The translations under genes were made by a program, and so were the position numbers. A stretch of DNA of 64,000 nucleotides from Syntrophaceae bacterium (GTDB taxonomy: Bacteria; Desulfobacterota; Syntrophia; Syntrophales; UBA2192): assembly GCA_013177795.1 (NCBI GenBank), contig JABLXY010000003.1, positions 701,578 to 765,577 on the forward strand. Reading direction: 5' to 3'. Below the pieces are notes generated by a model. The model did no database searches and had not been told where the DNA came from. It worked only from the letters and a program-made list of their open reading frames with translations. How positions within the stretch are numbered: position 1 is the first letter of the stretch; each line of letters begins with the position of its first letter. Of the stretch, positions 10,495 to 45,938 are shown piece after piece.

Positions 10495-10522
10495 TTGACT
10501 AATGTCAAAATTTTGTTAACAT
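10495..10522 (+). promoter_or_regulatory. Candidate sigma-70-type promoter TTGACT-N16-TAACAT embedded in the palindrome TTGAC-TAAT-GTCAA
   Basis: Read directly in the divergent spacer between the small minus-strand gene and the bEBP gene. The palindrome also presents TTGACA on the minus strand. Confidence 0.35.
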
Positions 10523-10684: not shown

Positions 10685-12091
10685 ATGGCAGACAGCAAGA
10701 TCAAGAAGGAAATGAAGAACATCCGGATCCTCATCGCCGAGGACAACGAGTTGAGCCGGGACAACCTCTCGGAATTGTTGAAAAGTTACGGATACGAGGT
10801 CAAGGGCGTCGGCGACGGCCGCCAGGCCATGGACGTCTTCATCGAGGACAAGTACGACCTCGTGATCACGGACCTCAAGATGCCCCACGTCGACGGCCTC
10901 CACTTGCTGAAGTTCGTCAAGGAGGTCAACCCCGAGAGCATCGTCATCATGATCACGGGCTACGGCACGGTCAACTCGGCCGTCGAGGCCATGAAGCTGG
11001 GCGCCTTCGACTACATCACCAAGCCCCTGAAGGACGACATCGTCAAGCTCACCATCGACCGTGCCCTGTCCTTCGCCAAGCTCAAGGAAGAGAACATCGC
11101 GCTGAAGGACCACCTGAAGAAGAAGTACGACTTCGGCAAGATCATCGGCTTCAGCGACAGCATGCGGAAGGTCTTCGACAACATCGAGAAGGTGGCCGCC
11201 TCGGACAGCACCGTCGTCATCTACGGGGAGAGCGGGACGGGAAAGGAACTCGTCGCCCGGGCCATTCACTTCAACAGCGACCGCCGGAGCTTTCCCCTCG
11301 TGCCGGTCAACTGCGGCGCCATTCCCGAGGAGCTCCTCGAGAGCGAGCTGTTCGGGCACGAGAAGGGGGCCTTCACGGGCGCCATCAAGAGCCGGGTGGG
11401 CCGCTTCGAGCTGGCCCAGGGCGGGACGATCTTCCTCGACGAGATCGGGGACATGAGCCCCGCACTGCAGGTCAAGGTCCTGCGCGTCATCCAGGAGAAG
11501 CAGTTCGAGCGCATCGGCGGGGTCAAGACGATCAACGCCGACGTGCGGATCATCTGCGCCACGAACCAGGACCTCGAGAAGGCCGTCCAGGAGAAGCGGT
11601 TCCGCGAGGACCTGTTCTACCGCATCAACGTCATCCCCATCTACCTGCCGCCCCTGCGGGACCGGAAGATGGACATCCCCGTCCTGGTCAACCACTTCCT
11701 CCAGAAGTTCAACAAGCTCAAGAAGAAGAACGTCAAGGGGCTCACCCCCGAGGCGACCAATTACATGATGCGCTACTCCTGGCCGGGAAACGTCCGCGAG
11801 CTGGAAAACCTCATCGAGATGCTCGTCGTCATGCGGGAGGACGGCATGATCAGGGTCGAGGACCTGCCGCCCAAGATCCTCAGCGTCGGGAAGGGCAAGA
11901 GCGAGGTGCTGAGCGTCGTCGACATCCCCGAGGACGGCATCGAGTACAACGGGGTGGTCGACCAGTTCGAAAAGGACCTCCTCCTCAAGGCCCTGGAGAA
12001 GACGGGCGGGGTGAAGAACCGCGCCGCCAAGCTGCTCAACCTGAACCGGACCACGTTCGTCGAAAAGCTCAAGCGCTTCAACATCAGCTAG
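10685..12091 (+). CDS. Sigma-54-dependent response regulator (REC + AAA+ bEBP + Fis-type HTH), candidate flagellar master regulator (FlrA/FleQ/FgrM-like role)
   Basis: DLVITDLKMPHVDG receiver Asp; GESGTGKE Walker A; GAFTGA sigma-54 contact loop; C-terminal NRAAKLLNLNRTTFVEKLKRF HTH. It lies at the head of the flagellar regulon. Confidence 0.88.
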   Translation: MADSKIKKEMKNIRILIAEDNELSRDNLSELLKSYGYEVKGVGDGRQAMDVFIEDKYDLVITDLKMPHVDGLHLLKFVKEVNPESIVIMITGYGTVNSAVEAMKLGAFDYITKPLKDDIVKLTIDRALSFAKLKEENIALKDHLKKKYDFGKIIGFSDSMRKVFDNIEKVAASDSTVVIYGESGTGKELVARAIHFNSDRRSFPLVPVNCGAIPEELLESELFGHEKGAFTGAIKSRVGRFELAQGGTIFLDEIGDMSPALQVKVLRVIQEKQFERIGGVKTINADVRIICATNQDLEKAVQEKRFREDLFYRINVIPIYLPPLRDRKMDIPVLVNHFLQKFNKLKKKNVKGLTPEATNYMMRYSWPGNVRELENLIEMLVVMREDGMIRVEDLPPKILSVGKGKSEVLSVVDIPEDGIEYNGVVDQFEKDLLLKALEKTGGVKNRAAKLLNLNRTTFVEKLKRFNIS

Positions 12092-12195
12092 CGGGCTTGT
12101 GAAAAACGCCCATCTGCGGCGTTCCTTCATCCCTCGTCGCTGCGACGCCCGTCCCGTCTTCTCAGTCTATTCCGTCTGTTCCGTCGAAAAGGGCG

Positions 12196-12223
12196 CCGGG
12201 GAGAATGCTCTCCCCGGTTTTTT
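12196..12223 (+). terminator. Rho-independent terminator
   Basis: CCGGGGAG-aatgct-CTCCCCGG is a perfect 8-bp stem followed by TTTTTT, about 100 nt after the bEBP stop. Confidence 0.85.
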
Positions 12224-12264
12224 CATGCTTTGCGCCTGCAGGCCCGAGGGTTTCGGCTTCGATC

Positions 12265-12278
12265 GTCAATATTTTGAC
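12265..12278. promoter_or_regulatory. Candidate enhancer (UAS) palindrome GTCAATATTTTGAC
   Basis: Perfect GTCAA-N4-TTGAC dyad 160 nt upstream of the sigma-54 promoter at 12425. It resembles the Pseudomonas FleQ box GTCaNTAAAtTGAC as I recall it (12/14). Confidence 0.45.
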
Positions 12279-12424
12279 AAGCCCCTCAAGTTTCCGTGGA
12301 TCGGGTCGACGGGCGCACGGGGCGCCATGCCCTGCTTCCGCTGCCGGCGGCCCCTGCACGCCGCCGCCCGGTGCCTGAACCCCTCCTGCCCCCGCCCCCA
12401 TCCCCCCCAGCCCCGTCTTTTCCA

Positions 12425-12440
12425 TGGCATAACCATTGCT
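12425..12440 (+). promoter_or_regulatory. Sigma-54 (-24/-12) promoter TGGCAT-aacca-TTGCT
   Basis: GG and GC are at canonical spacing, 62 nt upstream of ATG 12502. It overlaps the ORF-track start at 12436, which argues for the shorter CDS. Confidence 0.65.
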
Positions 12441-12501: not shown

Positions 12502-14715
12502 ATGAAAAAACGCCTTTTTGCCTGCCTGGCTCTCCTCCTCTTACTGGCCCTCGACCCGCCTGCGGCCTCTGCCCGGAGAGGCGCGGAGGTCTTCAGCCTT
12601 CACGTGGGCTCTTACGCGAGCGCCGAAAAGGCCGCCGAGCAGGTCAGGCTCCTGCAGGGCAAGGGGTGCGAGGCCTTCGCCGATAAGCCCGACGGCAGGG
12701 ACGGGAAGGTGCGCGTCTACGTGGGCCGCTTTGCCGATCCGCAGGAGGCGGCCCGCGAGGGGTCAAGGCTCGAGCAGAAGAAGATCATCCGCTTCTTTGC
12801 CGTCCGGCCCGTCCGCGCAGCCGAGGCGCCGAAGAAAGCCCTTGCCGCGCGGGAGCCCGCCGCCCCGGCGGGTCCGAAAGCTCCCGACACCCCGGCCCTG
12901 AAGGACACGAAAATCCACCCCCAGGTGAAGATCGAAACGGCGGCCCCGGGAGCATCCCGGCCGGGAAAGAAACCCCCTCTCTTCGCCCCGAGGCTGGAGT
13001 CGGCTGCGGGCGACTCGGTGACGGCGGGACTGCCGGAACCGGAGTACTTCAAGTTCGAGCCCTTCGAGGCGGGCGCACGTCCCCGCGCGGAGAGCGGCCG
13101 GGCGGGTGCCGGCCTTGCGGAAGACGAGGCCCTCTACGCCGAAGCGGTGGAACTGTACCGAAAGGGCAAGTACAGCACGGCCATCGACACGTTCCGGTCC
13201 TATATCCGTCAGTTCGCGGGCGGGCCCCGGTCGAAGGCCTGTTTTTACTGGATTGCCGAGTGCCACAGCCAGATGAAGGACCCGGCGAAGGCCGACGAGG
13301 CCTTCGCAGAGGCCGTCAGGCGCTGGCCCGACTACCGGGACATCCCCCGGGAGACCCTCGTGAGCCTGGGGTTCCATCATTTCCGGCGGGGCGCCTTCGA
13401 CAGCGCCATCGAGGTCTTCTCGTACACGATCAATCTCTACCCCCAGGACCCCTTCCGCAAGGAGATGAGCTACCTGATCGCCCGCTCGCTCACCGAGATG
13501 CAGCAGTACGAATCGGCCCTCCGGGCCTACAGCGCGGTGATCGAGAAGTACCCCGACACCAAGGAAGCCAAGGAGAGCGCCGTCATCATGGCCAACATCG
13601 GGGTCAGGAGCCCCGGGCTGAAGCTCCCGGCCCTCATGGCGGGCGCGGAAAACTATCTGGACCCCGTTGCGGCCTACGACAGGGTGCTCGCGAAGGACCT
13701 CCCGAACCCGGAGCTGGCGGAGCGGATCCTCTTTCAGAAGGCCTATGCCCTGTACCAGCGGAAGCAGTACCGCGAGGCGTTCCAGGCCGGCTTTGAACAG
13801 CTCAGGCGCTTCCCGAACGGCCCGTGCCGGGACGCGGGGCTGCAGACCCTCAAGGGGAGCACGGAAAGGATGGTCGACGAGGACTACGGCAGGGGGGATT
13901 ACCTCCGCGTGGCCGATACCTTCCTGTCGGCCTACGAGGGCGCATGGGTGAAGTCCGTCGACTTCGCGACGGGCTACCGGATCGCCGACAGCCTGCGGCG
14001 GGTCGGCCTGTACCGCGAGGCGCGCCGCGTGGCCGACCACCTGCTGATGACCGAGCGGGACGGCGGGAACCGAAACGCCCTGCTGCTGCTCGCGGCCGAC
14101 GTGAGCCTCCGCGGGGGGCACGCCGACGAGGCGGAACGCATTTTGACGGAGCTCTCCCGGCAGGCGGCGGTGCTCGGCCGGGAGGACAGGCAGGCGATGC
14201 AGCGGCTCCAGGGGGACATCTACCTGAAGAAGGGGCTCTACCCGAAAGCGGCGGCCTCCTATGCCGACGTCCCGGCCGCGGACATGCCCGACGCGGCCGC
14301 CCTGCACCGCAGCTACGGCGTCGCCCTGCGGTTCAGCGATGACTGCCCGTCGGCGCTGCAGCAGTTCCAGATGGCCATCCGCCGAGCCGAGAAGGACAGG
14401 GCCGCGCACGGCAGGGCTCTCCAGGACGCGCTGGCCGGCTCCGGGGACTGCCACCTGCAGAGCCGCAATTACGCCGAAGCCGTCTCAGCCTACAGGCAGG
14501 CCGTCGAGGCCGCCCAGGGGGGGGCGCAGAACCCCTGGACCCTCTACCACCTCGGCAGGAGCTATGTGGGGATGAACAACCTGGCCGAGGCCAACCGGGT
14601 GTTCTCGGAGCTGAAGGTCCGGACCGGCGACGACTTCTGGAACAAGACGATCGACTACACCCTCTCCGAGGCCGCATGGACGGAGAAGTACCGAAAGTAC
14701 CTGCAGGCGAAGTAG
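12502..14715 (+). CDS. Exported SPOR-domain (peptidoglycan-binding) protein with a long TPR-repeat region
   Basis: MKKRLFACLALLLLLAL signal. FSLHVGSYASAEKAAEQVRLLQGKG...VRVYVGRFADPQEA fits the SPOR consensus. An Ala/Pro-rich linker follows, then multiple TPR-like helical repeats. GGGAG RBS before ATG 12502. Confidence 0.75.
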   Translation: MKKRLFACLALLLLLALDPPAASARRGAEVFSLHVGSYASAEKAAEQVRLLQGKGCEAFADKPDGRDGKVRVYVGRFADPQEAAREGSRLEQKKIIRFFAVRPVRAAEAPKKALAAREPAAPAGPKAPDTPALKDTKIHPQVKIETAAPGASRPGKKPPLFAPRLESAAGDSVTAGLPEPEYFKFEPFEAGARPRAESGRAGAGLAEDEALYAEAVELYRKGKYSTAIDTFRSYIRQFAGGPRSKACFYWIAECHSQMKDPAKADEAFAEAVRRWPDYRDIPRETLVSLGFHHFRRGAFDSAIEVFSYTINLYPQDPFRKEMSYLIARSLTEMQQYESALRAYSAVIEKYPDTKEAKESAVIMANIGVRSPGLKLPALMAGAENYLDPVAAYDRVLAKDLPNPELAERILFQKAYALYQRKQYREAFQAGFEQLRRFPNGPCRDAGLQTLKGSTERMVDEDYGRGDYLRVADTFLSAYEGAWVKSVDFATGYRIADSLRRVGLYREARRVADHLLMTERDGGNRNALLLLAADVSLRGGHADEAERILTELSRQAAVLGREDRQAMQRLQGDIYLKKGLYPKAAASYADVPAADMPDAAALHRSYGVALRFSDDCPSALQQFQMAIRRAEKDRAAHGRALQDALAGSGDCHLQSRNYAEAVSAYRQAVEAAQGGAQNPWTLYHLGRSYVGMNNLAEANRVFSELKVRTGDDFWNKTIDYTLSEAAWTEKYRKYLQAK

Positions 14716-14720
14716 GGCCC

Positions 14721-16022
14721 ATGCTGAACCGCAATGCGCACAGGCCGGACGGGACGGCGGAAGGCCCCGGCGGCGGGATCGACGTCCTGCAGAGGTCCTT
14801 CGAGAGCTTCAACGTGGCCACCCTGAAACTCCAGGAGGCCTTCCGGAGCCTCGAGACGAAGTTCGAAAGCCTCAACCGGGAGCTGGAGCAGAAGAACCGG
14901 CGCCTCGAAAGCCTGCTTGCCGAGAAGGAGGAGGTCCGCAGCGAGCTCGAGACCATCCTCGAGAGCCTGACCACGGGGGTCATCGTGACGGACCTGCAGG
15001 GCCGCATCACGAGGATGAACGGCTGTGCCGTCCGCCTTACCGGGACGGAACCCGGGGCCGCGGGGCCGCGGGTCGCCGAACTCCTTCTCGGGTCGCCGGA
15101 GACGGGCGGGACCGGGGCGCCCCCGGCCCGGGGCATTCCGGGCAAGCGCAAAATCCGCCTCGGGGAGAACATCCTCGAGGTTCTCACGGCCCCCGTTTCC
15201 GCCGGGGACGGCAGCAGGCTGGGGACGGTGCACATCCTGCTCGACGTGACCCGGGTCGAGAGGCTCGAGGAGATGGCCAAGCGCACGGAGAAGTTCGCCG
15301 CCATGGGGGAGATGGCGGCCAACATCGCCCACGAGGTCCGCAACCCCCTCGGGAGCATTGCCCTGTCGGCCTCGCTGCTCCTGAAGGGCCTTGCCGACGA
15401 GAAGAGCCGGGACCGGGCTTCCCGCATCCTCCATTCCGTGCGCAGCGTGGACAACAAGATCGCCAACCTGCTGCTCTTCACCCGCAAGCCGGAGCCGCAG
15501 TTTCGCAACCTGCGCCTGCACGACGTCCTGCGGGACATCCTCCGTTTCTCCGGCGAGATCCTCGAGAAGGAGGGCATCCGGCTCAACGTGCGCCTGGCCG
15601 ACGGCGAGCCCGTCGTCCGCGCCGACGGGGAACTGTTGCAGCAGGTGCTCCTCAACATGATTCTCAACGCCGTCCAGGCCATGCGCGGGGGCGGCGAGCT
15701 TTCCTTCGAGACCCGGCTGCACCGCGACCCGGCGCTCACGCCGGGCATGGAGCGGACGATCGAGCTGCGCATCGCCGACACGGGTCCGGGGATCCCCGAG
15801 GCGGACCGGAAGCGGATTTTCGACCCCTTCTTCAGCACGCGCGAGGGGGGCAGCGGCCTCGGGCTTGCCATCGTGCACAACATCATCGACCTGCACCGCG
15901 GCTCCGTGGATGTGGAGCGCGGGGAGCGGGGCGGGAGCGTGTTCACCATCCTCCTGCCGCTCGCGGAAACGAATGCAGAAGGCGGGGCGGCAATAGGGCA
16001 AGAAGATAGGAATCGGAGATGA
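14721..16022 (+). CDS. Cytoplasmic PAS sensor histidine kinase (FlrB/FleS-like)
   Basis: No TM segment. Coiled coil, a PAS-like region (TTGVIVTDLQGRITRMN), the H-box MAANIAHEVRNPLGSI, and HATPase motifs (NAVQAM, DTGPGIP, GGSGLGLAIV). Confidence 0.88.
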   Translation: MLNRNAHRPDGTAEGPGGGIDVLQRSFESFNVATLKLQEAFRSLETKFESLNRELEQKNRRLESLLAEKEEVRSELETILESLTTGVIVTDLQGRITRMNGCAVRLTGTEPGAAGPRVAELLLGSPETGGTGAPPARGIPGKRKIRLGENILEVLTAPVSAGDGSRLGTVHILLDVTRVERLEEMAKRTEKFAAMGEMAANIAHEVRNPLGSIALSASLLLKGLADEKSRDRASRILHSVRSVDNKIANLLLFTRKPEPQFRNLRLHDVLRDILRFSGEILEKEGIRLNVRLADGEPVVRADGELLQQVLLNMILNAVQAMRGGGELSFETRLHRDPALTPGMERTIELRIADTGPGIPEADRKRIFDPFFSTREGGSGLGLAIVHNIIDLHRGSVDVERGERGGSVFTILLPLAETNAEGGAAIGQEDRNRR

Positions 16023-17434
16023 CGGAAGCGGACACGAAGTGCAGGCCCATCCTCGTCGTCGACGACGACCCCTACATGCGGACGTCGCTCACGGACTGCC
16101 TCGTGAGCTGCGGCTGGCCTGTGGAGACGGCGGCCGACGGGGCCGACGCCCTGGCGAAGTTCCGCAAGGGGGCCTACGAGATGGTCATCACGGACGTCCG
16201 CATGCCCAAGATGGGCGGGCTGGAGCTGCTGAAGAACGTGAAGGGCCTGTCCCCCGACACTCCCGTCATCGTCATCACCGCCTACGGGACCGTGAACACG
16301 GCCGTGGAGGCCATGAAGCAGGGCGCGGCGGACTTCGTCATGAAGCCCTTTTCGCTCGACGATCTCGAAGTGGTGGTTCGGAATGTCCTCGAGCGGGGCC
16401 TGCAGCCGGACGTCGCCCGCGCAGATGTGCAGGAGACGGGAGGCGCGGCCCGCCCGGCGCAGCGGCCCATCGTGACGGAGGACGCCCGGATGGCCGAGCT
16501 CCTGGAGTTTCTCAAGAACATCGCGAAGAGCCGCTCGAGCGTCCTCATCCAGGGCGAGAGCGGGACGGGCAAGGAGCTGCTGGCCCGGTTCATCCACTAC
16601 CACAGCCCCCGGCGGCACCAGCCCTTCGTTGCCGTCAACTGCGCGGCCATCCCCCACACGCTCCTGGAGAGCGAGATGTTCGGCTACGAGAAGGGCGCCT
16701 TCACGGGCGCCGCCCAGCGCCGGATCGGCAAGTTCGAGCTGGCCGACCGCGGGACGCTTCTGCTCGACGAGGTGAGCGAGATGGACATGCCGCTGCAGGC
16801 GAAGCTCCTGCGTGTGATCCAGGAGTGCGAGATCGACCGGCTCGGCGGCAAGGACCCCATCCCCGTGGACGCGCGGATCATCGCGACGACCAACGCGGAC
16901 CTCAAGGCGTGCATCCGGGAGAAGAAGTTCAGGGAAGACCTCTACTACCGGCTCAACGTGATCCCCGTCCGCGTCCCGCCGCTGCGGGAGCGCAAGGGCG
17001 ACATCGCGGCCCTGGCGGGGCACTTCCTTGCGAAGTACGCAGCCGAGAACGGCAGGAAAAAGCCGGTCCTCACCCCCGAGACCCTGGCGGCGCTTGCCGC
17101 CTACCCCTGGCCGGGCAACGTGCGGGAGCTGGAAAACGTCATCGAGCGCGCCGTGCTCGTGTGCCCGGGCGATGCGCTCGAGCCGCATCACCTCGACCTC
17201 GACGGAGGCGGGATCGAGTCGGGGGCCGCAGGTCCCGAGCCGCCGTCCCCGGCGGGCGGGGCGACGACCCTGCGCGACATGGAGAAGCATCTCATCTTCA
17301 GCACCCTGAAGAGGGTCCGGGGCAACAAGACGAAGGCCTCCGAGATCCTCGGGATCAGCGTGCGGACGATGCGGAACAAGCTCAACGAGTACAAGCTCGA
17401 ACAGGGCTCGCCGGACGCCGGGGCCGATGCCTGA
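16019..17434 (+). CDS. Sigma-54-dependent response regulator (FlrC/FleR-like)
   Basis: ATGA overlap with the kinase gene. EMVITDVRMPKMGG receiver; GESGTGKE; GAFTGA; C-terminal HTH KASEILGISVRTMRNKL. Confidence 0.9.
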   Translation: MTEADTKCRPILVVDDDPYMRTSLTDCLVSCGWPVETAADGADALAKFRKGAYEMVITDVRMPKMGGLELLKNVKGLSPDTPVIVITAYGTVNTAVEAMKQGAADFVMKPFSLDDLEVVVRNVLERGLQPDVARADVQETGGAARPAQRPIVTEDARMAELLEFLKNIAKSRSSVLIQGESGTGKELLARFIHYHSPRRHQPFVAVNCAAIPHTLLESEMFGYEKGAFTGAAQRRIGKFELADRGTLLLDEVSEMDMPLQAKLLRVIQECEIDRLGGKDPIPVDARIIATTNADLKACIREKKFREDLYYRLNVIPVRVPPLRERKGDIAALAGHFLAKYAAENGRKKPVLTPETLAALAAYPWPGNVRELENVIERAVLVCPGDALEPHHLDLDGGGIESGAAGPEPPSPAGGATTLRDMEKHLIFSTLKRVRGNKTKASEILGISVRTMRNKLNEYKLEQGSPDAGADA

Positions 17435-17494: not shown

Positions 17495-17510
17495 TGGCAC
17501 ATGCCTTGCA
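17495..17510 (+). promoter_or_regulatory. Sigma-54 promoter TGGCAC-atgcc-TTGCA
   Basis: Perfect consensus match 40 nt upstream of the flgB ATG at 17550. Confidence 0.8.
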
Positions 17511-26264: not shown

Positions 26265-26277
26265 GGCAAATATTGCC
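26265..26277. promoter_or_regulatory. Candidate enhancer palindrome GGCAA-ATA-TTGCC
   Basis: Perfect dyad 182 nt upstream of the fliK sigma-54 promoter. Confidence 0.3.
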
Positions 26278-30203: not shown

Positions 30204-30217
30204 GTCAATTTGTTGAC
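30204..30217. promoter_or_regulatory. Candidate enhancer (UAS) palindrome GTCAATTTGTTGAC
   Basis: Second GTCAA-N4-TTGAC dyad in the window, 146 nt upstream of the fliL sigma-54 promoter. Confidence 0.45.
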
Positions 30218-30349
30218 CCGCCGGGGCCGCCCCGTGCCGTCCCCGGGACCTTCCCTTGCGCCTGTCCGGCCGCCGCCGCCGGGCCGGCCCGTACCCCTCC
30301 GCGGGCAGCCCCGGCCGCCGGAATCGCTTGAAAAATCCCCGCTTTCGAT

Positions 30350-30365
30350 TGGTATGGAATTTGCT
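30350..30365 (+). promoter_or_regulatory. Sigma-54 promoter TGGTAT-ggaat-TTGCT
   Basis: GG/GC at canonical spacing in the 367-nt flgE-fliL spacer. Confidence 0.55.
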
Positions 30366-30498: not shown

Positions 30499-30999
30499 AT
30501 GGCCAAGGAAGCGGAAAAGAACAAGACGGAAGAGCAGGCCGCCGAGGGCGGCAAGGAAAAGAAGAAGGGCTCCAAGCTCAAGTGGATCCTCATCGGCGTG
30601 GTCCTCCTGCTGGTGCTCGGAGGAGGCGGCGCCGGGGCCTATCTGTTCCTGAACAAGTCGGCGGGCAAGGAGCCCCAGGCCCCCCCGAAGCCCCCCATCG
30701 GCGCCGTCTGGGCACCCGACGTGTTCATCATCAACCTCGCCGACGCCGATGCGGACCGCTATCTCAAGATCACCATGAACTTCGAACTGTCGGACGCGCT
30801 CGCCGCGACCGAGCTGGAACAGATGAAGCCGAAGGTGCGCGACATGGTCCTCGGCGTGCTGACCGTGAAGACGTTCAAGGACCTGAACAACTTCGAGGGC
30901 AAGCAGCGCCTCAAGGAAGAGATCGCCATGCGCCTCAACAGCCACCTCACGAGGGGCAAGGTGGTGCAGGTCTACTTCACGGATTTTGTGGTGCAATAA
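30499..30999 (+). CDS. fliL: Flagellar basal body-associated protein FliL
   Basis: Lys-rich N-terminus, one TM helix, then FIINLADADADRYLKITMNFEL...VVQVYFTDFVVQ, the classic FliL end. Confidence 0.92.
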   Translation: MAKEAEKNKTEEQAAEGGKEKKKGSKLKWILIGVVLLLVLGGGGAGAYLFLNKSAGKEPQAPPKPPIGAVWAPDVFIINLADADADRYLKITMNFELSDALAATELEQMKPKVRDMVLGVLTVKTFKDLNNFEGKQRLKEEIAMRLNSHLTRGKVVQVYFTDFVVQ

Positions 31000-31000
31000 G

Positions 31001-31068
31001 AGGCGAAGGGCAAAAGGCGGAAATCCCCCTGACACCCCCTCATGGAAAACGGGGAAAGAGGGGGATTT
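31001..31068. repeat. Short GGC-phased purine array (GAGGCGAA GGGCAAAA GGCGGAAA) plus perfect 10-bp hairpin AAATCCCCCT ... AGGGGGATTT
   Basis: Read directly. The stem arms are at 31021-31030 and 31059-31068 in the fliL-fliM spacer. Confidence 0.6.
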
Positions 31069-31110
31069 GGACGAAATAGAAACGGGAAGAGAAATAGGCG
31101 GCGTTTCGCG

Positions 31111-32112
31111 ATGTCCAACATCCTGTCCCAGGAAGAAGTCGACGTCCTCTTGAAAGGGCTCTCCGGCGGGGAGATCGACACGGACCGGGTCGAGCAGCAC
31201 GAGCCGGGCGATGTCCTTCCCTACGACCTGACCAGCCAGGACCGGATTATCCGGGGCCGGATGCCCACCTTCGAGATGACGACGGAGAAGTTCGCCCGCA
31301 TCTTCCGGCTCAGCCTCTCGTCGCTGTTGCGGCGGGTCGTCGGGGTGAGCGCCCTGTCGGTGGAGATGATGAAGTTCGGCGAGTTCCTCAAGACGCTCCC
31401 GGTGCCGACGAGCCTGCACATCTTCCGGATGGACCCGCTTCGGGGCAGCGCGATCTTCGTCGTCGAGTCGAAGGTGATCTTTTCCCTCGTGGACATCCTC
31501 TTCGGCGGCTCGGGACAGTCGAGCTTCAAGATCGAGGGCCGCGAGTTCACCGCCATCGAGAACCGCCTGATCAAGCGGGTCGTGCTCAGCGCGTTGGCCG
31601 ATTTCGAGAAGGCCTGGAAGGCGATCCTCGAGGTGAAGATCACGCACCAGCGCTCGGAGATCAACCCCCAGTTCGCGCACATCGTCCCGCTGACGGACGT
31701 GGTCGTCGTGGTGCACTTCGAGATCGAGATGGAGTTCTCCTCGGGCATCGTGTCCATCTGCATCCCCTATTCGATGCTGGAGCCCGTGCGCGAGAAGCTG
31801 CAGGCCGGCTTCCAGAGCGACGCCCTGGAGGTGGACCGGGAGTGGGCCAACCGGTTCAAGGAGGGGCTCGTCGCGTCGAAGGTGGAGCTCATCGTGGAGC
31901 TCGGGCGCACGGAAGTCAGCGCCAAGGAGGTGGTCGGCCTCAAGAAGGGCGACGTCATCATGCTCGACCGCTACCGCGTTGACCCGCTCGACGTCTACGT
32001 GGAGGGGGTCCAGAAGCTGCGCGCCTACCCGGGCGTCTACAAGGGAAACACGGCGATTCAGATCGCGGGAATGGTGGAAGGAAAAGAGGCTCGGTACTAT
32101 GGAACAGAATGA
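31111..32112 (+). CDS. fliM: Flagellar motor switch protein FliM
   Basis: MSNILSQEEVDVLLKG (CheY-binding-type N-terminus), followed by the FliM middle and C-terminal domains. Confidence 0.95.
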   Translation: MSNILSQEEVDVLLKGLSGGEIDTDRVEQHEPGDVLPYDLTSQDRIIRGRMPTFEMTTEKFARIFRLSLSSLLRRVVGVSALSVEMMKFGEFLKTLPVPTSLHIFRMDPLRGSAIFVVESKVIFSLVDILFGGSGQSSFKIEGREFTAIENRLIKRVVLSALADFEKAWKAILEVKITHQRSEINPQFAHIVPLTDVVVVVHFEIEMEFSSGIVSICIPYSMLEPVREKLQAGFQSDALEVDREWANRFKEGLVASKVELIVELGRTEVSAKEVVGLKKGDVIMLDRYRVDPLDVYVEGVQKLRAYPGVYKGNTAIQIAGMVEGKEARYYGTE

Positions 32113-32554
32113 AGTGGACAGCTTGATGCAGGAGATCAACAAGGAGACCGGCGGCGCCCCGCCCAGGCAGGATGGGGAGATCGGTTGGGACGACGTCAGG
32201 GACGAGCTGGAGAAATCCCGGCAGGGCGCCCCGACGGCGGAAGTCAGCGATCCCGACTTCAGCGAGCTGCAGAAGCCTGCGGCCGGCAAGGGGGGCTTCG
32301 ATCTCGACTTCATCCTCGACATCCCGCTGAGCCTCACCGTGGAGCTGGGCCGCTGCCGCATGCTGATCAGCGAGCTGCTGCAGCTCGGGCAGGGGTCCGT
32401 GGTGGAGCTGCAGAAGATCGCCGGCGAGCCCATGGACGTCTATGTCAACCAGCGCCTCATCGCGCGCGGGGAGGTCGTCGTCATCAACGAGAAGTTCGGC
32501 GTCCGCCTGACGGACATCGTCTCCCCCGCGGAGCGCATCCTCAAGCTGCGCTGA
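32099..32554 (+). CDS. fliN: Flagellar motor switch protein FliN
   Basis: C-terminal LDIPLSLTVELGRCRMLISELLQLGQGSVVELQKIAGEPMDVYVNQRLIARGEVVVINEKFGVRLTDI. 14-nt overlap with fliM. Confidence 0.93.
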   Translation: MEQNEVDSLMQEINKETGGAPPRQDGEIGWDDVRDELEKSRQGAPTAEVSDPDFSELQKPAAGKGGFDLDFILDIPLSLTVELGRCRMLISELLQLGQGSVVELQKIAGEPMDVYVNQRLIARGEVVVINEKFGVRLTDIVSPAERILKLR

Positions 32555-32570
32555 AGGGAGGCGGGCGGGC

Positions 32571-32972
32571 ATGAGCACATTCGAGTTCCTGGCGTCGCTC
32601 GTGAAGATGATCTCGGCCCTGGCCGTCGTGCTCGGGGTCATGCTGGCCGGGCTCTGGGCGGTCCGGAAGCTGATGCAGAGGACGGGTGCGAAGGTCGACG
32701 ACGGCCGGATGATCCGGGTCCTCTCCACCCGCCACCTGGGCCCGAAGTCGAGCATCCTGCTGCTCGACGTGCTGGGAAGCGTGATCGTCGTTGGTGTCTC
32801 CGGCGACCGGATGACCCTGCTGACCACCATCACCGACGAGGATGCCCTCGAGCGTCTCCGGTCGGCGCGCCCCGGGGAGGCCGAACCGCAGCCGTTTCTG
32901 GACCCGGTGGCCCTGTACCGGCGCAAGCTCAAGACCCTGAGCCTCCTGGGCGGGCAGGGTGAAACGAAATGA
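32571..32972 (+). CDS. fliO: Flagellar biosynthesis protein FliO
   Basis: 133 aa. A single TM helix ([18 protein letters not shown]), then ...[22 protein letters not shown]. Located between fliN and fliP. Confidence 0.8.
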
Positions 32973-33009
32973 GGCGACGCACCCGAACAACGACCCGGCG
33001 GACACGGCC

Positions 33010-33783
33010 ATGAAAAAGCCCCTGTGGACATCGCTCGCCCTGGCGGCCCTGCTTGCCGCTGCGGCCACCCTCTCCGCGGCGGAGGCCGCGTGGGCGCAGA
33101 ACATGCCCGTGCCGTCCGTCAGCCTCAGCATCGGCGACGGCTCCGGCGAGCCGGGCAAGGTGGCCGTGGTGATGCAGCTGCTGCTGCTGCTCACCGTCCT
33201 GTCGCTCGCCCCGGCGATCCTCATGATGGTGACCTCCTTCACGCGGATCGTCGTCGTGCTCTCGATCCTGCGGCACGCCCTGGGCACCCAGCAGCTGCCG
33301 GCAAACCAGATTGTCATCGGGCTCGCACTCTTCCTGACGTTCTTTATCATGACGCCCGTCTGGCAGAAGGTCAACAGCGACGCCATCCAGCCCTACATGA
33401 ACGAGGAGATCTCGACCCAGCAGGCCTTCGAGAAGGCGGCGGTGCCGATCCGGGACTTCATGCTCAAACAGACCCGGGAGAAGGACATGGAGCTCTTCAT
33501 CAAGATCTCGGGCGGCAAAAAGCCCGAGAAGCCCGCCGACGTGGCGCTTACGGCGCTCATCCCGGCATTCGTGATCAGCGAGCTGAAAACCGCCTTCCAG
33601 ATCGGCTTTCTCATCTACATCCCCTTCCTCGTCATCGACATGGTCGTGGCCAGTATCCTGCTGTCGATGGGGATGATGATGCTGCCGCCGATCATGATCA
33701 GCCTGCCCTTCAAGCTCCTGCTGTTCGTGCTCGTCGACGGGTGGTACCTCATCATCGGCTCGCTCGTCCAGAGCTTCCACTGA
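33010..33783 (+). CDS. fliP: Flagellar export apparatus protein FliP
   Basis: [19 protein letters not shown] signal; [18 protein letters not shown]; [28 protein letters not shown]. An alternative upstream ATG at 32959 overlaps fliO. Confidence 0.93.
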
Positions 33784-33808
33784 GCGCCCGCGGGGGGGAG
33801 GCAGAGGC

Positions 33809-34078
33809 ATGACAACGGATCTGATCATGGGCATCGCGGCCGAGACGATGAAGGTGACCCTCCTGGTGTCGGCGCCGATCCTGCTCGTCGGCCTCGTCGT
33901 GGGCATCGTGATCAGCGTCTTCCAGGCAGTGACGCAGGTGCACGAGATGACGCTGACCTTCGTGCCGAAGATCATCGCCGTCATGCTGGCCCTCCTCGTC
34001 GCCGCGCCGTGGATGCTGGACATGCTCGTGAACTTCACACACAACCTGTTCTCGAACATACCGAACTATATCAAATAG
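33809..34078 (+). CDS. fliQ: Flagellar export apparatus protein FliQ
   Basis: 89 aa. VISVFQAVTQVHEMTLTFVPKI. Confidence 0.95.
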   Translation: MTTDLIMGIAAETMKVTLLVSAPILLVGLVVGIVISVFQAVTQVHEMTLTFVPKIIAVMLALLVAAPWMLDMLVNFTHNLFSNIPNYIK

Positions 34079-34110
34079 GCACCAGGCAACAGGCGCGGGC
34101 ATCAGGTGAC
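34076..34110. repeat. Heptamer array TAGGCAC CAGGCAA CAGGCGC GGGCATC AGGTGAC
   Basis: Read directly. It fills the whole fliQ-fliR spacer, starting on the TAG stop. Confidence 0.65.
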
Positions 34111-34115
34111 AGAGC

Positions 34116-34889
34116 GTGAACTTCCCCGTTTTCTCCGCCGCCCAGGTCGAGCTGTTCTTCCTCGTCCTCATCCGGGTCAGCACGATCCTGGCCATGATCC
34201 CGATCCTCGGGGACCGGACCACGCCCCTGCGGGTCAAGGGGGGGCTGTCGATTCTCGTTACCGCTCTGGTCCTGCCCTTCGTGGAGCCCCCGGCGGCGGC
34301 CGCGGACGATCTCTTCAGCCTCGGCATGCGCATGGGCGGGGAGGTGTTCATCGGGGTCATCCTGGGATTCGCCGGCCGGCTCGTGTTTGCGGGGATCCAG
34401 CTGGCAGGCCAGCTCGTGGGCTTCCAGATGGGCTTTGCCATCGTCAACGTCATCGACCCCGCGACGAGCGGCCAGGTGTCCATCATCGCCGAGTTTCAGT
34501 ACATGCTGGCCGGGCTCTTCTTTTTGGCCGTCGACGGCCACCACACGATGATCCAGGCCATCTCGGAAAGCTACCGGGTCCTGCCGGTCCTCGGGTTCCA
34601 CGTCACGGGCGACCTGGTGCAGAACCTCGTCGCGCTGTCGCGGAACCTCTTCATCATCGCCGTCAAGGTCTCGGCCCCCATCGTCGTGGCCCTCCTGTGC
34701 GCGAATGTCGGCCTGGGCCTCGTCGCGCGCACCGTTCCACAGATCAACATCTTCATCGTGGGCTTCCCGCTCCAGATCGCCATCGGCCTCATCGGGATCG
34801 GGGTCACGCTGCCCCTGTTTCTCCACATCGCGGCCGGCCTCTTCTCGAACCTCCCCGCCGAAATGGGCCTCTTGCTCAGGGCAATGTAG
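34116..34889 (+). CDS. fliR: Flagellar export apparatus protein FliR
   Basis: GTG start. (M)NFPVFSAAQVELFFLVLIRVSTILAMIPILG; polytopic membrane protein. Confidence 0.92.
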   Translation: MNFPVFSAAQVELFFLVLIRVSTILAMIPILGDRTTPLRVKGGLSILVTALVLPFVEPPAAAADDLFSLGMRMGGEVFIGVILGFAGRLVFAGIQLAGQLVGFQMGFAIVNVIDPATSGQVSIIAEFQYMLAGLFFLAVDGHHTMIQAISESYRVLPVLGFHVTGDLVQNLVALSRNLFIIAVKVSAPIVVALLCANVGLGLVARTVPQINIFIVGFPLQIAIGLIGIGVTLPLFLHIAAGLFSNLPAEMGLLLRAM

Positions 34890-34899
34890 GCGCCGGGGG

Positions 34900-34928
34900 T
34901 GCAGGCATCAGGCAACGGGCGTCAGGCG
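34900..34928. repeat. Heptamer array TGCAGGCA TCAGGCA ACGGGCG TCAGGCG
   Basis: Read directly, 11 nt after the fliR stop. Confidence 0.6.
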
Positions 34929-35026
34929 CAAGACTGGACGGCGGGGAAAGGCGTCCATCATCTCTCCTTGCGGCCCGGCCATTGCCCGAAATCCGGAGCG
35001 ATAATCCCGGAATCAGAACGCGTTTC

Positions 35027-35042
35027 CGGCACGAAGTCTGCA
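35027..35042 (+). promoter_or_regulatory. Weak sigma-54-like promoter candidate CGGCAC-gaagt-CTGCA
   Basis: GG/GC spacing is correct, but both hexamers deviate by one base. It lies 187 nt upstream of flhB. Confidence 0.3.
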
Positions 35043-35081
35043 ACCCTTTCCATCGCCGCCGCAGCCTGATACCCCGGGTTT

Positions 35082-35163
35082 GGCGCCGGTTTGTTGACGG
35101 CGCCGTCAGCAGCCCGGAATCTCGTTGCAAGGGTTGCAAAACCGCCGTCTTGCGCGCTGACGG
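35082..35163. other. Cluster of dyads: hairpin GGCGCCG-N9-CGGCGCC, 12-bp palindrome GACGGCGCCGTC, TTGCAAGGGTTGCAA, and GCCGTC-N9-GACGGC
   Basis: Read directly in the 339-nt fliR-flhB spacer. Confidence 0.5.
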
Positions 35164-35175
35164 CTAGAGCGAACA

Positions 35176-35224
35176 ACGCAAAACGTAAAACGTAAAACCC
35201 AAAACCTAACACGGCATACGGCAG
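35176..35224. repeat. Heptamer array ACGCAAA ACGTAAA ACGTAAA ACCCAAA ACCTAAC ACGGCAT ACGGCAG
   Basis: Read directly. Seven tandem 7-mers end 4 nt before the flhB ATG. Confidence 0.8.
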
Positions 35225-35228
35225 TTTC

Positions 35229-36299
35229 ATGGCCGACATCGACAAGGACCAGGAACGAAACGAACAGGCGTCGCCCAAGCGACGCGAGGAAGCCCGGAGC
35301 AAGGGCCAGGTCGCCCAGAGCCGCGAGGCGGTATCGGCGGCGATCCTGCTGTCCTGCACGATCCTGTTCTATTTCGGCTCCGGGGCCATGGTCGAGCGCC
35401 TGATGGACCTGACGCGCTGGACGCTGCGCGAATGCGGCACGACGGCCGTCACCCTCACGAACATCCACTCGCTTCTCTGGGGATGGTCCTGGAAGCTCCT
35501 GCTCATCCTGGGCCCGCTGCTGCTCACCGTGCTTGCGGCCGGGGTGCTGGCCAACTACCTGCAGATCGGGTTCATCTTCTCCACGGAGGCGCTCGCCCCG
35601 AAGTTCGACAAGATCAACCCCGTCAAGGGCTTCCAGCGCCTCTTCTCGCTGCGTTCCGTGGTTGAGCTGGCCAAGAGCCTCGTGAAGATGGGCGTCGTCG
35701 CCTATGTCGTCTGGTTCACCCTGAGAGAGGAACTGCCGAACGTGGTGCCGCTCATGGAGGAGTCCGTCTGGGGGATCCTCCTGTACACGGGGCGGGTCTC
35801 CTTCAAGATCCTGATCACGACCTGCTGGATCCTCGTCGTGCTGGCCATCGTGGACTACATCTACCAGCGCTGGGAGTACGAGAAGGGGCTCCGGATGTCC
35901 AAGCAGGAGGTCAAGGACGAATACAAGCAGACCGAGGGCAACCCTGCTGTCAAGGCGAGGATCCGGCGCATCCAGCGCGAGGCGGCGCGCAGGCGGATGA
36001 TGGCCGCCGTGCCCAAGGCCGACGTGGTCATCACCAACCCGACGCACCTGGCCGTGGCCGTCCGCTACGACCCCGAGAAGATGCACGCGCCCACCGTCGT
36101 GGCCAAGGGGGCGGGCCACATCGCCGAGAAGATCCGGGAGATCGCCGCGGCCCACGGCGTGCCCGTCGTCGAGAACAAACCCGTGGCACAACTATTGTAT
36201 AAAACGGTCGATGTGGACCGTGCGATCCCGGAGGACCTGTACCGCGCGGTCGCCGAGATCCTGGCTTACGTGTACGGCCTCAAGGAGCGGGCTGTCTAG
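35229..36299 (+). CDS. flhB: Flagellar export switch protein FlhB
   Basis: EQASPKRREEARSKGQVAQSRE N-terminus and the NPTH autocleavage site (VVITNPTHLAVAVRYD). Confidence 0.96.
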   Translation: MADIDKDQERNEQASPKRREEARSKGQVAQSREAVSAAILLSCTILFYFGSGAMVERLMDLTRWTLRECGTTAVTLTNIHSLLWGWSWKLLLILGPLLLTVLAAGVLANYLQIGFIFSTEALAPKFDKINPVKGFQRLFSLRSVVELAKSLVKMGVVAYVVWFTLREELPNVVPLMEESVWGILLYTGRVSFKILITTCWILVVLAIVDYIYQRWEYEKGLRMSKQEVKDEYKQTEGNPAVKARIRRIQREAARRRMMAAVPKADVVITNPTHLAVAVRYDPEKMHAPTVVAKGAGHIAEKIREIAAAHGVPVVENKPVAQLLYKTVDVDRAIPEDLYRAVAEILAYVYGLKERAV

Positions 36300-36387
36300 G
36301 GCTCTGGTTACGTCTGCGAGTGTTTTGCCGACGACCCGCAAGGATATTCCTGCGGGGCGCATCCCTGCACGGATGGCGGAATAAGCG

Positions 36388-38457
36388 ATGGCAGAAGCGG
36401 TTGAAAAAGCGGGGGCCGTCCCCCACTGGGCGAAAAACCCGGCGACGCTGATGGGCGTCGGCGTGATCGCCATCCTCATGGTCATGGTGATCCCCCTGCC
36501 GCCGATCATCATCGACCTGCTGCTGTCGCTCAGCATCACGACGGCGATCGTGATTCTGCTGATGTCGATGTTCGTCCTCAAGCCCCTCGACTTCTCCGTC
36601 TTCCCCTCCGTGCTGCTGACGGTGACCCTGTTCCGCCTGTCGCTCAACGTGGCCTCGTCGCGGCTCATCCTGCTGCACGGCAACGAGGGCACCGGGGCCG
36701 CCGGGCAGGTCATCAAGGCCTTCGGGACCTTCGTCGTGGGGGGCAACTACGTGGTGGGCCTCATCGTCTTCACCGTGCTCACCCTGATCAACTTCGTCGT
36801 GATCACCAAGGGCGCCACCCGCATCGCGGAGGTGGCGGCCCGGTTCACCCTGGACGCCATGCCGGGCAAGCAGATGAGCATCGACGCCGATCTCAACGCC
36901 GGGCTCATCTCGGAGGCCGAGGCGAGGCGCCGGCGCAGCGAGATCGAGCGGGAGGCCGACTTCTACGGCGCCATGGACGGCGCCAGCAAGTTCGTGCGCG
37001 GCGACGCCATCGCCGGGGTCGTGATCATCTTCATCAACATCGTGGGGGGTCTCATCGTCGGCGTGCTGCAGCAGGGCATGGACATCACCGATGCGGCCCG
37101 CAACTACACGCTGCTCACGATCGGCGACGGGCTCGTGACGCAGGTGCCGGCCCTGATCATCTCCACGGCCGCCGGCATGCTCGTGACGCGCTCCACCTCG
37201 TCGTCCAATCTCGGGCAGGAGATCTCGGACCAGCTCTTCCTGCAGCCCAAGGCGATCGGCACGGCCGCCGCGATCCTCCTCGTGTTTGCCCTGATCCCCG
37301 GCATGCCGAAGCTCTCCTTCCTCCTCGTGGCGGCGGGTGCGGGGTTTCTGGCCTGGCACCTGATCCGCAGCGCCCCGCCGGCAACGGAGGCCGCCGAGGA
37401 GCAGGCGCCGCCGCCCACGCCGATCGAGACCGTGGACCTGCTGCTGCCGCTCGACCTGCTGGAGATCGAGGTGGGCTACGGGCTCATCGGGTTTGTCGAC
37501 GCGGCACAGGGCGGGGAGCTCCTGCAGCGCATCAAGTCGCTGCGGCGGCAGCTGGCCGCGGAGATGGGGTTCGTCATCCCGGCCATCCACATCCGGGACA
37601 ACCTCCAGCTCAAGCCCAACCAGTACACCGTCATCCTCAAGGGCGTCGAGATCGCCCGCGGCGAGCTGATGCCCGGCCACTGGCTGGCGCTCACGTCGGA
37701 CAAGACACCCCGCGTCAAGGGGATCGAGACGAAGGAGCCCGCCTTCGGGCTTCCCGCCGTCTGGATCACGGAGCGGGAGAAGGAGAGCGTCCAGGCGCGC
37801 GGCGTGGTCGTCGTGGACCCCGCCACGGTGGTGACGACGCACCTGACCGAGATCATCAAGGCCCACGCAGACGAGCTGCTCGGCCGGCAGGAGGTCCAGG
37901 CGCTGCTCGACAACCTCGCGAAGACCTATCCGAAGGTGGTCGAGGAGCTCGTCCCGAAGGTGGTCTCCGTGGGGACGATCCACCGCGTGCTGCAGCGGCT
38001 GCTGCGCGAGAGGATCTCCATCCGGGACCTGCTGACGGTGCTCGAGACGCTGGCCGACTACGCGCCGATGACGAAGAACATCGACATCCTCACCGGCTAC
38101 GTGCGCCAGGCTCTGGCCCGGACCATCACCCGGCAGTACCGCGACAGCGAGGGGGGCATCACCGTGGTCATGCTCTCGCCGGAGATCGAGGACAAGATCA
38201 GCCAGTCCGTCCAGCACACGGAATTCGAGTCGTTCCTCGCCGTGGACCCGAACTGGGTGCAGAAAGTCGTCCGCGGCGTGCAGAAGTTCATCGGGACCTT
38301 TGCCTCGAGGGGGCTGCAGCCCATCGTGCTGTGTTCGCCGGGGGCCCGGATCCACTTCCGGAAGGTCCTGGAAAAATTCATCCCGAACATCATCGTGCTC
38401 TCGCACAACGAGATCACGCACGACGTGAACATCAAATCCCTCGGGATCGTGGAGTAG
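36388..38457 (+). CDS. flhA: Flagellar export gate protein FlhA
   Basis: 689 aa. FPSVLLTVTLFRLSLNVASSRLILL; EVAARFTLDAMPGKQMSIDADL; GAMDGASKFVRGDAIAG. Confidence 0.97.
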   Translation: MAEAVEKAGAVPHWAKNPATLMGVGVIAILMVMVIPLPPIIIDLLLSLSITTAIVILLMSMFVLKPLDFSVFPSVLLTVTLFRLSLNVASSRLILLHGNEGTGAAGQVIKAFGTFVVGGNYVVGLIVFTVLTLINFVVITKGATRIAEVAARFTLDAMPGKQMSIDADLNAGLISEAEARRRRSEIEREADFYGAMDGASKFVRGDAIAGVVIIFINIVGGLIVGVLQQGMDITDAARNYTLLTIGDGLVTQVPALIISTAAGMLVTRSTSSSNLGQEISDQLFLQPKAIGTAAAILLVFALIPGMPKLSFLLVAAGAGFLAWHLIRSAPPATEAAEEQAPPPTPIETVDLLLPLDLLEIEVGYGLIGFVDAAQGGELLQRIKSLRRQLAAEMGFVIPAIHIRDNLQLKPNQYTVILKGVEIARGELMPGHWLALTSDKTPRVKGIETKEPAFGLPAVWITEREKESVQARGVVVVDPATVVTTHLTEIIKAHADELLGRQEVQALLDNLAKTYPKVVEELVPKVVSVGTIHRVLQRLLRERISIRDLLTVLETLADYAPMTKNIDILTGYVRQALARTITRQYRDSEGGITVVMLSPEIEDKISQSVQHTEFESFLAVDPNWVQKVVRGVQKFIGTFASRGLQPIVLCSPGARIHFRKVLEKFIPNIIVLSHNEITHDVNIKSLGIVE

Positions 38458-38461
38458 GGCC

Positions 38462-39625: not shown

Positions 39626-39766
39626 GAAGACAGAGGGTAAGAGGGTAAGAAGGTAAGAAGGGACGTTAAGAAGAAATGAAGGGATAGAGATCGAAGAAGC
39701 GGATGATGCGCGATGTAACACAGACGCATCCAACCTTCTGATCCTCTCACTTTCTTACCTTCTTAT
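39624..39766. repeat. Octamer array inverted element: GAGAAGAC AGAGGGTAA GAGGGTAA GAAGGTAA GAAGGGACGTTAA GAAGAAATGAA ... CCAACCTTC TGATCCTC TCACTTTC TTACCTTC TTA
   Basis: Read directly. It fills the flhF-flhG spacer and shares the GGTAAGAA unit with the 7091-7130 array. Confidence 0.75.
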
Positions 39767-40751: not shown

Positions 40752-40759
40752 GGGCGGAC

Positions 40760-45924: not shown

Positions 45925-45938
45925 GGCAATATTTTCCC
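45925..45938. promoter_or_regulatory. Degenerate enhancer-like site GGCAATATTTTCCC
   Basis: 11/14 identical to GTCAATATTTTGAC at 12265; 186 nt upstream of the flgF sigma-54 promoter. Confidence 0.25.

Follow-up and report, generated by a model that had tools for sequence, protein, structure and literature searches.

A conserved FleQ-box-type dyad at two sigma-54 flagellar promoters in Syntrophales, and the enhancer-binding protein that may read it

How are the flagellar genes of a member of the Syntrophales ordered into a regulatory cascade, and which protein reads the inverted repeats that lie ahead of two of its operons? The genes occupy a 64,000-nucleotide (nt) stretch of a Syntrophaceae bacterium (assembly GCA_013177795.1, contig JABLXY010000003.1, positions 701,578 to 765,577 of the forward strand), here called the window. 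A literature search turned up no work on how flagellar genes are regulated in this order, whose members are mostly uncultured syntrophs. The element in question is GTCAA-N4-TTGAC, a 14-bp palindrome termed the dyad below, with distances counted from the start of the dyad to the start of the promoter. We consider it likely that the dyads are conserved FleQ-box-type enhancers, and that they are bound by a bacterial enhancer-binding protein encoded nearby, bEBP1, which would activate both an operon for a histidine kinase and a second such protein (bEBP2) and the fliL-to-fliA operon.

The window (66% G+C) contains two exact copies of GTCAA-N4-TTGAC and no others. Both are strand-less candidate upstream activator sequences: dyad 1, GTCAATATTTTGAC (12265..12278), for the operon encoding a SPOR/TPR protein, the kinase and bEBP2, and dyad 2, GTCAATTTGTTGAC (30204..30217), for the fliL operon. 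Each is followed by a sigma-54 promoter of the -24/-12 type on the + strand. P_spor (TGGCATAACCATTGCT, 12425..12440; TGGCAT-N5-TTGCT) begins 160 nt 3′ of dyad 1 and 77 nt ahead of an ATG at 12502, and P_fliL (TGGTATGGAATTTGCT, 30350..30365; TGGTAT-N5-TTGCT) begins 146 nt 3′ of dyad 2 and 149 nt ahead of the fliL ATG at 30499. Where 0.04 would be expected, the window holds four copies of the strict pattern TGGYAY-N5-TTGCW (12425, 17495, 26447 and 30350), and a fifth sigma-54 promoter, TGGCAC-N5-TTGCC, begins at 46111. All five lie on the + strand, directly 5′ of flagellar operons. In dinucleotide-preserving shuffles the mean number of exact dyads was 0.01, and none of 100 shuffles held two or more. 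A preliminary description of this DNA had reported the two dyads and their promoters at these spacings, interpreted the spacing as enhancer distance and judged the pair unlikely by chance. Coordinates and distances are confirmed, the promoters prove to be strict and conserved, and two dyads stand against the 0.01 expected.

To follow the dyad across species, a FliG-anchored scan with one genome per GTDB species yielded 80 loci with 10-kb flanks, almost all of them Syntrophales/Syntrophaceae metagenome-assembled genomes, with FliG identities from 97% down to about 50%. Orthologous genes were placed by tblastn, strict sigma-54 promoters were classed by their position in the conserved gene order, and the best dyad match was scored within 275 nt 5′ of each promoter. 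A dyad with at most one mismatch is present at 37 of the 48 P_spor promoters, the remainder having two to four mismatches, and at 37 of the 41 P_fliL promoters, which follow flgE, the remainder having two; GTCA-N6-TGAC itself is found at 38 of these 41. The orthologs of two other promoters in the window, P_flgB (0/57) and P_fliK (0/45), have no such dyad in any of 102 cases, their best matches carrying two to four mismatches. This partition has a Fisher’s exact P of 3e-38, a figure that is not a true probability since the loci share phylogeny. Almost all of the 71 dyad sites differ in sequence and come from different species. The enrichment near sigma-54 promoters that the preliminary description had proposed to look for is evident over 1.34 Mb of related loci plus the window, where 30 of 34 exact dyads fall 60-350 nt 5′ of a strict promoter, a zone that makes up 4.7% of the sequence (binomial P about 7e-36).

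The pattern of conservation within these regions is that of a protein-binding site with a movable position. Alignments of the ten closest species were made for the P_spor region (A1) and the P_fliL region (A2). In both, the dyad and the -24/-12 element form invariant islands against mean column identities of 46% and 72%, respectively, and in A2 dyad 2 forms the conserved block ACCGTCAAWTTGTTGACC. A frequency matrix of the 71 sites has G1, T2, C3, A4, G12 and C14 invariant or nearly so, with an A/T-rich center. Over the loci the palindrome at P_fliL is nearly perfect, and at P_spor of distant species TTGGC or TTGTC often replaces TTGAC as the right arm, the left arm showing no compensating change; substitutions at position 13 (A, G or T) have no matching change at position 2. 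Such uncompensated changes argue for protein recognition of DNA and not for an RNA stem. The distance from dyad to promoter varies between 87 and 292 nt over the loci, as expected of a position-flexible enhancer. The elements thus combine the general features of sigma-54 enhancers, namely dyad symmetry, a flexible position roughly 80-300 bp 5′ of the promoter and a bEBP with a helix-turn-helix (HTH) domain encoded nearby.

The dyad closely resembles a site whose reader is known. For Pseudomonas, the FleQ box is quoted as GTCaNTAAAtTGAC (P. aeruginosa) and GTCAaAAAAtTGAC (P. putida) (PMC6120874), and is described as GTCAAT and ATTGAC in inverted orientation with two A/T bases between them, to which a symmetric HTH dimer binds (PMC10723142). 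Box and dyad share a 14-bp pseudo-palindrome, GTCA/TGAC ends and an A/T-rich center. Flagellar operons typically carry one upstream FleQ box (PMC10723142), and here, too, a single box lies 5′ of the sigma-54 flagellar promoters, although the host belongs to the Syntrophales and not, as for Pseudomonas FleQ, to the gammaproteobacteria. The FleQ targets listed for Pseudomonas are fleSR, flhA, fliE and fliL (PMC6120874); the targets proposed here run parallel, with a kinase/second-bEBP operon corresponding to fleSR, fliL itself, and also flhA. A motif with the same half-sites and spacing, yGTCA-N6-TGACr, was predicted in Desulfovibrionales for the FlrA/FleQ-like protein DVU2894 (Kazakov et al. 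2015, PMC4641369), likewise in a sigma-54 cascade for flagella whose second regulator is FlbD-like. Those dyads lie 5′ of the regulator’s own gene and imply that it regulates itself with no sigma-54 promoter involved, whereas the dyads here are at sigma-54 promoters. In Vibrio cholerae, the FlrA-bound region 5′ of flrBC contains GTCA-N6-TGGC (PMC4641369), the form that is the commonest P_spor variant in the more distant loci of our set. The resemblance to GTCA-N6-TGAC that the preliminary description noted therefore agrees with the consensus in all three papers (PMC6120874, PMC10723142, PMC4641369).

Which protein might bind the dyad? A tblastn search with the AAA+ domain found only two bEBPs in the window, bEBP1 (10685..12091, + strand) and bEBP2 (16019-17434, + strand), and the preliminary description had suggested that one of the bEBPs encoded here was the binder. 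The recognition helix points to bEBP1. By Pfam this protein consists of a receiver, a sigma-54 AAA+ domain and an HTH_8 domain; its GAFTGA motif is intact and a Fis-type HTH lies at the C-terminus. The receiver is canonical (Pfam Response_reg, E=2.9e-28), with the acidic pocket, the Asp in LVITDLKMP, the Thr and the Lys all present. The bEBP1 HTH, ...LNRTTFVEKLKRFNIS, aligns to that of P. aeruginosa FleQ, ...IRRTTLVEKMRKYGMS (PDB chain 8p53_C), and the aligned segments, GGVKNRAAKLLNLNRTTFVEKLKRFNIS and GGVVARAAERLRIRRTTLVEKMRKYGMS, have RTT-VEK-(K/R) in common; the recognition helices read NRTTFVEKLKR in bEBP1 and RRTTLVEKMRK in FleQ. Among the PDB HTH domains compared, the RTT-VEK helix of bEBP1 recurs only in FleQ, and is found neither in ZraR, the NtrC-family DNA-binding domains 4l5e and 2m8g or Fis, nor in bEBP2. 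It is retained as RTT[LFY]VEK in 118 of 120 bEBP1 homologs (71-91% identical), proteins that carry generic database names such as ‘sigma-54-dependent Fis family regulator’ or ‘ZraR’. A query of a word-indexed database with the HTH gave only fragments, including one with the name ‘flagellar transcriptional regulator A’.

The genomic setting of bEBP1 is consistent with this role. Its gene has a sigma-70-type promoter on the + strand (10495..10522; TTGACT and TAACAT separated by 16 nt, with TG ahead of the -10), kept as TTGACTAWTG...TTTGTTWACAT in six other loci (L014, L047, L048, L050, L058 and L085/L086), and is parted from dyad 1 by an intrinsic terminator (12195..12228, + strand), a 10-bp stem followed by a T-run that is kept in several relatives in A1. 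With a conserved sigma-70-type promoter and a terminator of its own, bEBP1 would not depend on sigma-54 and would stand at the top of the cascade. The link between bEBP1 and the dyad gains support from another, independent case of adjacency, seen in Syntrophus buswellii and its relatives (L081, L087-L090). There the bEBP1 ortholog lies not in the flagellar cluster but beside an operon for a methyl-accepting chemotaxis protein (MCP) and chemotaxis proteins (MCP-cheR-cheD-...-cheA), and a dyad, GTCATTGTTTTGAC, is found in the intergenic region of that ortholog, about 200 nt 5′ of a sigma-54 promoter that lies on the − strand and is directed toward the MCP-che operon. Chemotaxis genes probably also belong to the dyad regulon, judging from this arrangement.

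Some further features of the bEBP1 region may be noted. The bEBP1 promoter (TTGACTAATG...TTTTGTTAACAT) is strikingly conserved despite very different G+C contents among the species. We rejected as an autoregulatory box the third-best match to the position weight matrix, GTCAAAATTTTGTT at 10504, 181 nt 5′ of bEBP1. It lies within the spacer of the sigma-70-type promoter, its GTCAA is replaced in relatives and it is not conserved; bEBP1 thus has no conserved dyad ahead of it here. One 88%-identical homolog (locus L084) is found amid type I restriction, SprT-like and AbiGi genes, with neither a dyad nor a sigma-54 promoter nearby.

Promoters without a dyad carry a different palindrome. When their upstream regions were read by eye, an element of the form GG[CA]A-N5-T[GT]CC, such as GGCAATATTTGCC, became apparent; an enumeration of perfect 4+4 palindromes had none for P_flgB or P_fliK. 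The element is present at 43 of 45 P_fliK promoters, with peaks about 86 and 171 nt 5′, but at none of 41 P_fliL and only 2 of 48 P_spor promoters. For P_flgB it lies 5′ in 11 of 57 loci, and in 20-21 of the 57 its position is a constant +245, within flgB. The window itself has strand-less copies at 26265..26277 (GGCAAATATTGCC, 182 nt 5′ of P_fliK), at 45925..45937 (GGCAATATTTTCC, 186 nt 5′ of P_flgF/G), at 17740-17752 (+245 of P_flgB) and at 46154-46166. In distant loci, an element resembling a site for integration host factor (IHF), TAACATATTGATA, follows this palindrome at about -45.

This second element has the half-sites of the FlbD family, which binds GGCA-N4/5-TGCC: the motif derived by DAP-chip for the Desulfovibrio flagellar regulator DVU1063 is GGCAxxxxTGCC, and the Caulobacter FlbD (ftr) site is CCCGGCAxxxxxTGCCGGG (PMC3333781). 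These sites are the counterpart of the element at the fliK, flgF/G and some flgB promoters, while their GGCA half-site differs from the GTCA of the dyad and is absent from P_fliL, which places the dyad outside that family. The NCBIfam FlbD model scores bEBP2 at 421 bits and bEBP1 at 318 bits, and the bEBP2 recognition helix, SVRTMRNKLNEY, is like those of the Aquifex NtrC-family domain 4l5e and Fis, not that of FleQ. Two enhancer types thus divide the five promoters of the window, which encodes two bEBPs, suggesting that one bEBP serves each type; GG[CA]A-N5-T[GT]CC is probably the bEBP2 enhancer. The suggestion that one of the encoded bEBPs binds the dyad can accordingly be narrowed to the 10685 protein, with the 16019 protein set aside as FlbD-like, an FlbD-type palindrome being present at the promoters that lack the dyad.

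Several observations nevertheless weigh against bEBP1 as the reader of the dyad. Eleven of the 48 P_spor promoters lack a dyad with at most one mismatch. The Arg467-Arg468 pair of FleQ, proposed to read the GxC ends of the box (PMC10723142), is Asn-Arg in bEBP1, and bEBP1 has no Pfam FleQ-domain hit and, with its phosphorylatable receiver, does not have the FleQ-family architecture. The RTTLVEK helix class is large in an HTH-only search of 1.84 billion representatives and takes in bEBPs whose receiver is canonical, weak or missing, their DNA specificity being known for FleQ alone. Many dyad-bearing loci also have no bEBP1 ortholog within 10 kb, and its presence in those genomes is assumed. The last two points would also suit a regulator encoded outside the window, be it a bEBP of the FleQ/FlrA/DVU2894 type with a degenerate or absent receiver or a modulating transcription factor that is not a bEBP, and in Desulfovibrio this motif was assigned to a bEBP that lacks an N-terminal domain, DVU2894 (PMC4641369). 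We nevertheless regard an outside regulator as unlikely. bEBP1 itself has the FleQ-like helix in extremely conserved form, is encoded in motility neighborhoods (the L084 homolog apart) and adjoins a dyad-promoter pair in two contexts, and bEBP1 and bEBP2 already provide two activators for two enhancer types. It is less probable still that bEBP2 binds the dyads, activating fliL and its own operon, even though dyad 1 stands ahead of the operon that encodes it and two-component operons are commonly autoregulated. Its helix is unlike that of FleQ, it matches FlbD better, and the GGCA-type motif occurs at other promoters in a mutually exclusive fashion with the dyad.

Readings in which the dyads are not activator sites at all fare worse. 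An architectural site for IHF or another nucleoid protein might be considered, in that TCAA-N4-TTG fits the core of the asymmetric IHF consensus WATCAANNNNTTR, and dyad 1 ends in TTGACA, the -35 element of sigma-70 promoters. Conservation of the dyad is symmetric, however, and extends to G1 and C14, neither of which is part of the IHF consensus; the dyads are distal, 87-292 nt 5′, and not between enhancer and promoter, where a separate IHF-like element lies closer to P_fliL; and there is no sigma-70-type -35/-10 pair at either dyad, dyad 2 reading TTGACC. Both interpretations were rejected on these grounds, and together we hold them to be very improbable. That the dyads are chance palindromes or RNA hairpins without function at the DNA level has next to no probability in our judgment. 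Dyad 1 with its flanks does fold at -9.2 kcal/mol (z=-3.4), but dyad 2 folds no better than shuffled sequence (z=+0.8), a T-run is lacking, arm changes at position 13 are uncompensated at position 2, and the actual terminator lies at 12195-12228, so that a hairpin or terminator was rejected; chance is opposed by the shuffles and by the retention of the dyads across dozens of species.

With bEBP1 preferred as the reader of the dyad, a mechanism can be proposed. Sigma-70 holoenzyme would transcribe bEBP1, a dimer of whose C-terminal Fis-type HTH domains would bind GTCAA-N4-TTGAC. Phosphorylation of the receiver would lead bEBP1 to oligomerize, DNA looping would bring it into contact with sigma-54 holoenzyme 146-160 bp 3′, and ATP hydrolysis through the GAFTGA loop would open the promoter. 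At P_fliL, looping may be helped by a weak, putative IHF-like element, AATCGCTTGAAAA (30322..30334, + strand), located between dyad 2 and the promoter and kept in A2 as GGAATCNCTTGAAAAT; it fits in part the reverse IHF consensus, YAANNNNTTGATW. The class II units switched on in this way would be the SPOR/TPR-histidine kinase-bEBP2 operon and fliL-fliMOPR-flhBA-flhFG-fliA, the latter covering the switch and export apparatus together with FlhF, FlhG and FliA. bEBP2, acting at GGCA-N5-TGCC, would then turn on the hook and rod promoters (fliK-flgDE, flgF/G and perhaps flgB), and FliA the late genes. In its four tiers the model corresponds to the scheme of Pseudomonas and Vibrio, its second tier being FlbD-like.

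Two target operons are proposed. Target operon 1 (12502..17434, + strand) comprises three overlapping reading frames whose products were assigned by Pfam, the SPOR+TPR protein (12502-14715), the PAS histidine kinase (14676-16022) and bEBP2 (16019-17434), and its gene order is conserved in most loci. Target operon 2 (30499..41470, + strand), whose extent is predicted, would comprise fliL, fliM, fliO, fliP, fliR, flhB, flhA, flhF, flhG and fliA according to Pfam and NCBIfam, with short intervening open reading frames (ORFs) left unannotated. FliL follows directly on P_fliL (Pfam E=1.4e-23), the FliA-like ORF (40643-41470, + strand) would be the last gene, and the pattern scan of the window found no further strict sigma-54 promoter inside 30499..41470. 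The promoters without a dyad are P_flgB (TGGCACATGCCTTGCA, 17495..17510, + strand), which served as the contrast and is followed by flgB, flgC, fliE, fliF, fliG, fliH, fliI and fliJ; the strict promoter P_fliK (26447-26462, + strand), followed by fliK, flgD and flgE; and P_flgF/G (46111-46126, + strand; TGGCAC-N5-TTGCC), with flgM and flagellin genes later 3′. Gene context also places a TPR gene on the − strand between fliJ and P_fliK.

The site appears to behave like a FleQ box, although its putative regulator, bEBP1, is strictly speaking no member of the FleQ family. A place for bEBP1 in that family was considered and rejected, since NCBIfam gave only sub-threshold AtoC, NtrC and other hits and the Pfam receiver is canonical. 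bEBP1 shares with FleQ the RTT-VEK helix, with Asn-Arg in place of Arg-Arg. Its receiver could be phosphorylated, in contrast to the phosphorylation-incompetent domain of FleQ, which is controlled by FleN and cyclic di-GMP (c-di-GMP); an flhG gene is present here. It differs from DVU2894, which lacks an N-terminal domain and has GAFTHA, in having a receiver and GAFTGA. FgrM, a master regulator of flagella that is a bEBP of the response-regulator type and whose receiver is functional, was reportedly described by Ueki and colleagues in 2012 in Geobacter, of the formerly ‘deltaproteobacterial’ lineage. bEBP1 presumably resembles FgrM in being a master regulator of this type. The fgrM gene is named as a flagellar regulator elsewhere (PMC4579418).

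The locus is a solid fresh case of a known type of switch, the FleQ-box class, and not a new kind of switch. What appears to be new is its lineage and the pairing of a phosphorylatable regulator with an FlbD-type second enhancer code. These results suggest that recognition of the FleQ box has been kept well outside Pseudomonas and Vibrio, whatever input domain the regulator carries. Possibly, although we hold this only tentatively, bEBP1 represents a widespread and very conserved clade of phosphorylation-dependent flagellar/chemotaxis master regulators in Syntrophales and neighboring Thermodesulfobacteriota, combining the FleQ helix and box with a canonical receiver. In that case, the code linking this HTH to GTCA-N6-TGAC would be ancient and cross-phylum, with the input domain exchanged between a true receiver, a degenerate FleQ domain and none, and the cluster, given its FlbD-type second tier, would be a hybrid of gammaproteobacterial (FleQ) and alphaproteobacterial (FlbD) enhancer codes. 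Its kinase would still have to be named, and a small sigma-28-driven feedback protein may be encoded beside the regulator gene. From sequence comparison, a function is proposed for two generically annotated regulators and their DNA sites are predicted. The predicted four-tier hierarchy (sigma-70 to bEBP1, then bEBP2/FliA, then late genes) could be recognized at the sequence level in dozens of metagenome-assembled genomes, and both motifs can be used directly to annotate the motility regulons of related genomes.

Two genes next to bEBP1 deserve mention. A 72-aa ORF on the − strand (10161-10379; MTISTYQIDNILKAYSRQ...) is divergent from bEBP1 and has no Pfam hit. It is preceded on the reverse strand by a sigma-28-type promoter, CTAAAGTTTT-N11-CCGAT (approximately 10405-10436). 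This motif is found 5′ of bEBP1 in most of the related loci examined, being degenerate in L050 and absent from L084, and a matching ORF of 70-71 aa is called in L083, L085 and L086. Its product may feed back, as a late-gene factor, on the master regulator. Adjoining bEBP1 and the small ORF is a gene for a receiver-GAF-HD-GYP (HD_5) protein (8441-10012, − strand), an arrangement kept in L083, L085 and L086; the protein may be a c-di-GMP phosphodiesterase that provides input to the motility switch.

Other conserved sequences surround the two enhancer-promoter regions. Just 3′ of dyad 1 (12279-12320), the block A-GC--CT-AAGTTTYC is followed after about 10 nt by TCGAC. The ten closest species keep this block, whereas more distant species do not; it could be a second protein site or simply reflect recent common ancestry. 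Between P_spor and the start codon, the leader of the SPOR/TPR operon contains a near-invariant GGTCAGGCGGTGGTG (12447-12465) in A1. After flgE, nested inverted repeats, CCGGGTTGCCCC ... GCGGTAAGCCGC ... GGGGCAGCCCGG (30141-30187), are kept in nine of ten aligned sequences (all except L014) and have no T-run; they may form a transcript-end or stabilizing stem-loop that parts flgE from the fliL promoter region. Finally, spacers between enhancer and promoter (26380-26440 and 12340-12415 in the window; also L002, L005-L009, L013 and L014) contain C-rich tandem heptamer-like repeats, for example GATACCC x4, TGATGCC x4 and ACCCTGT x3 among the relatives; the window itself has GCCCCGT x2.9. Both repeat unit and copy number vary by species, so that the distance from enhancer to promoter changes with them.

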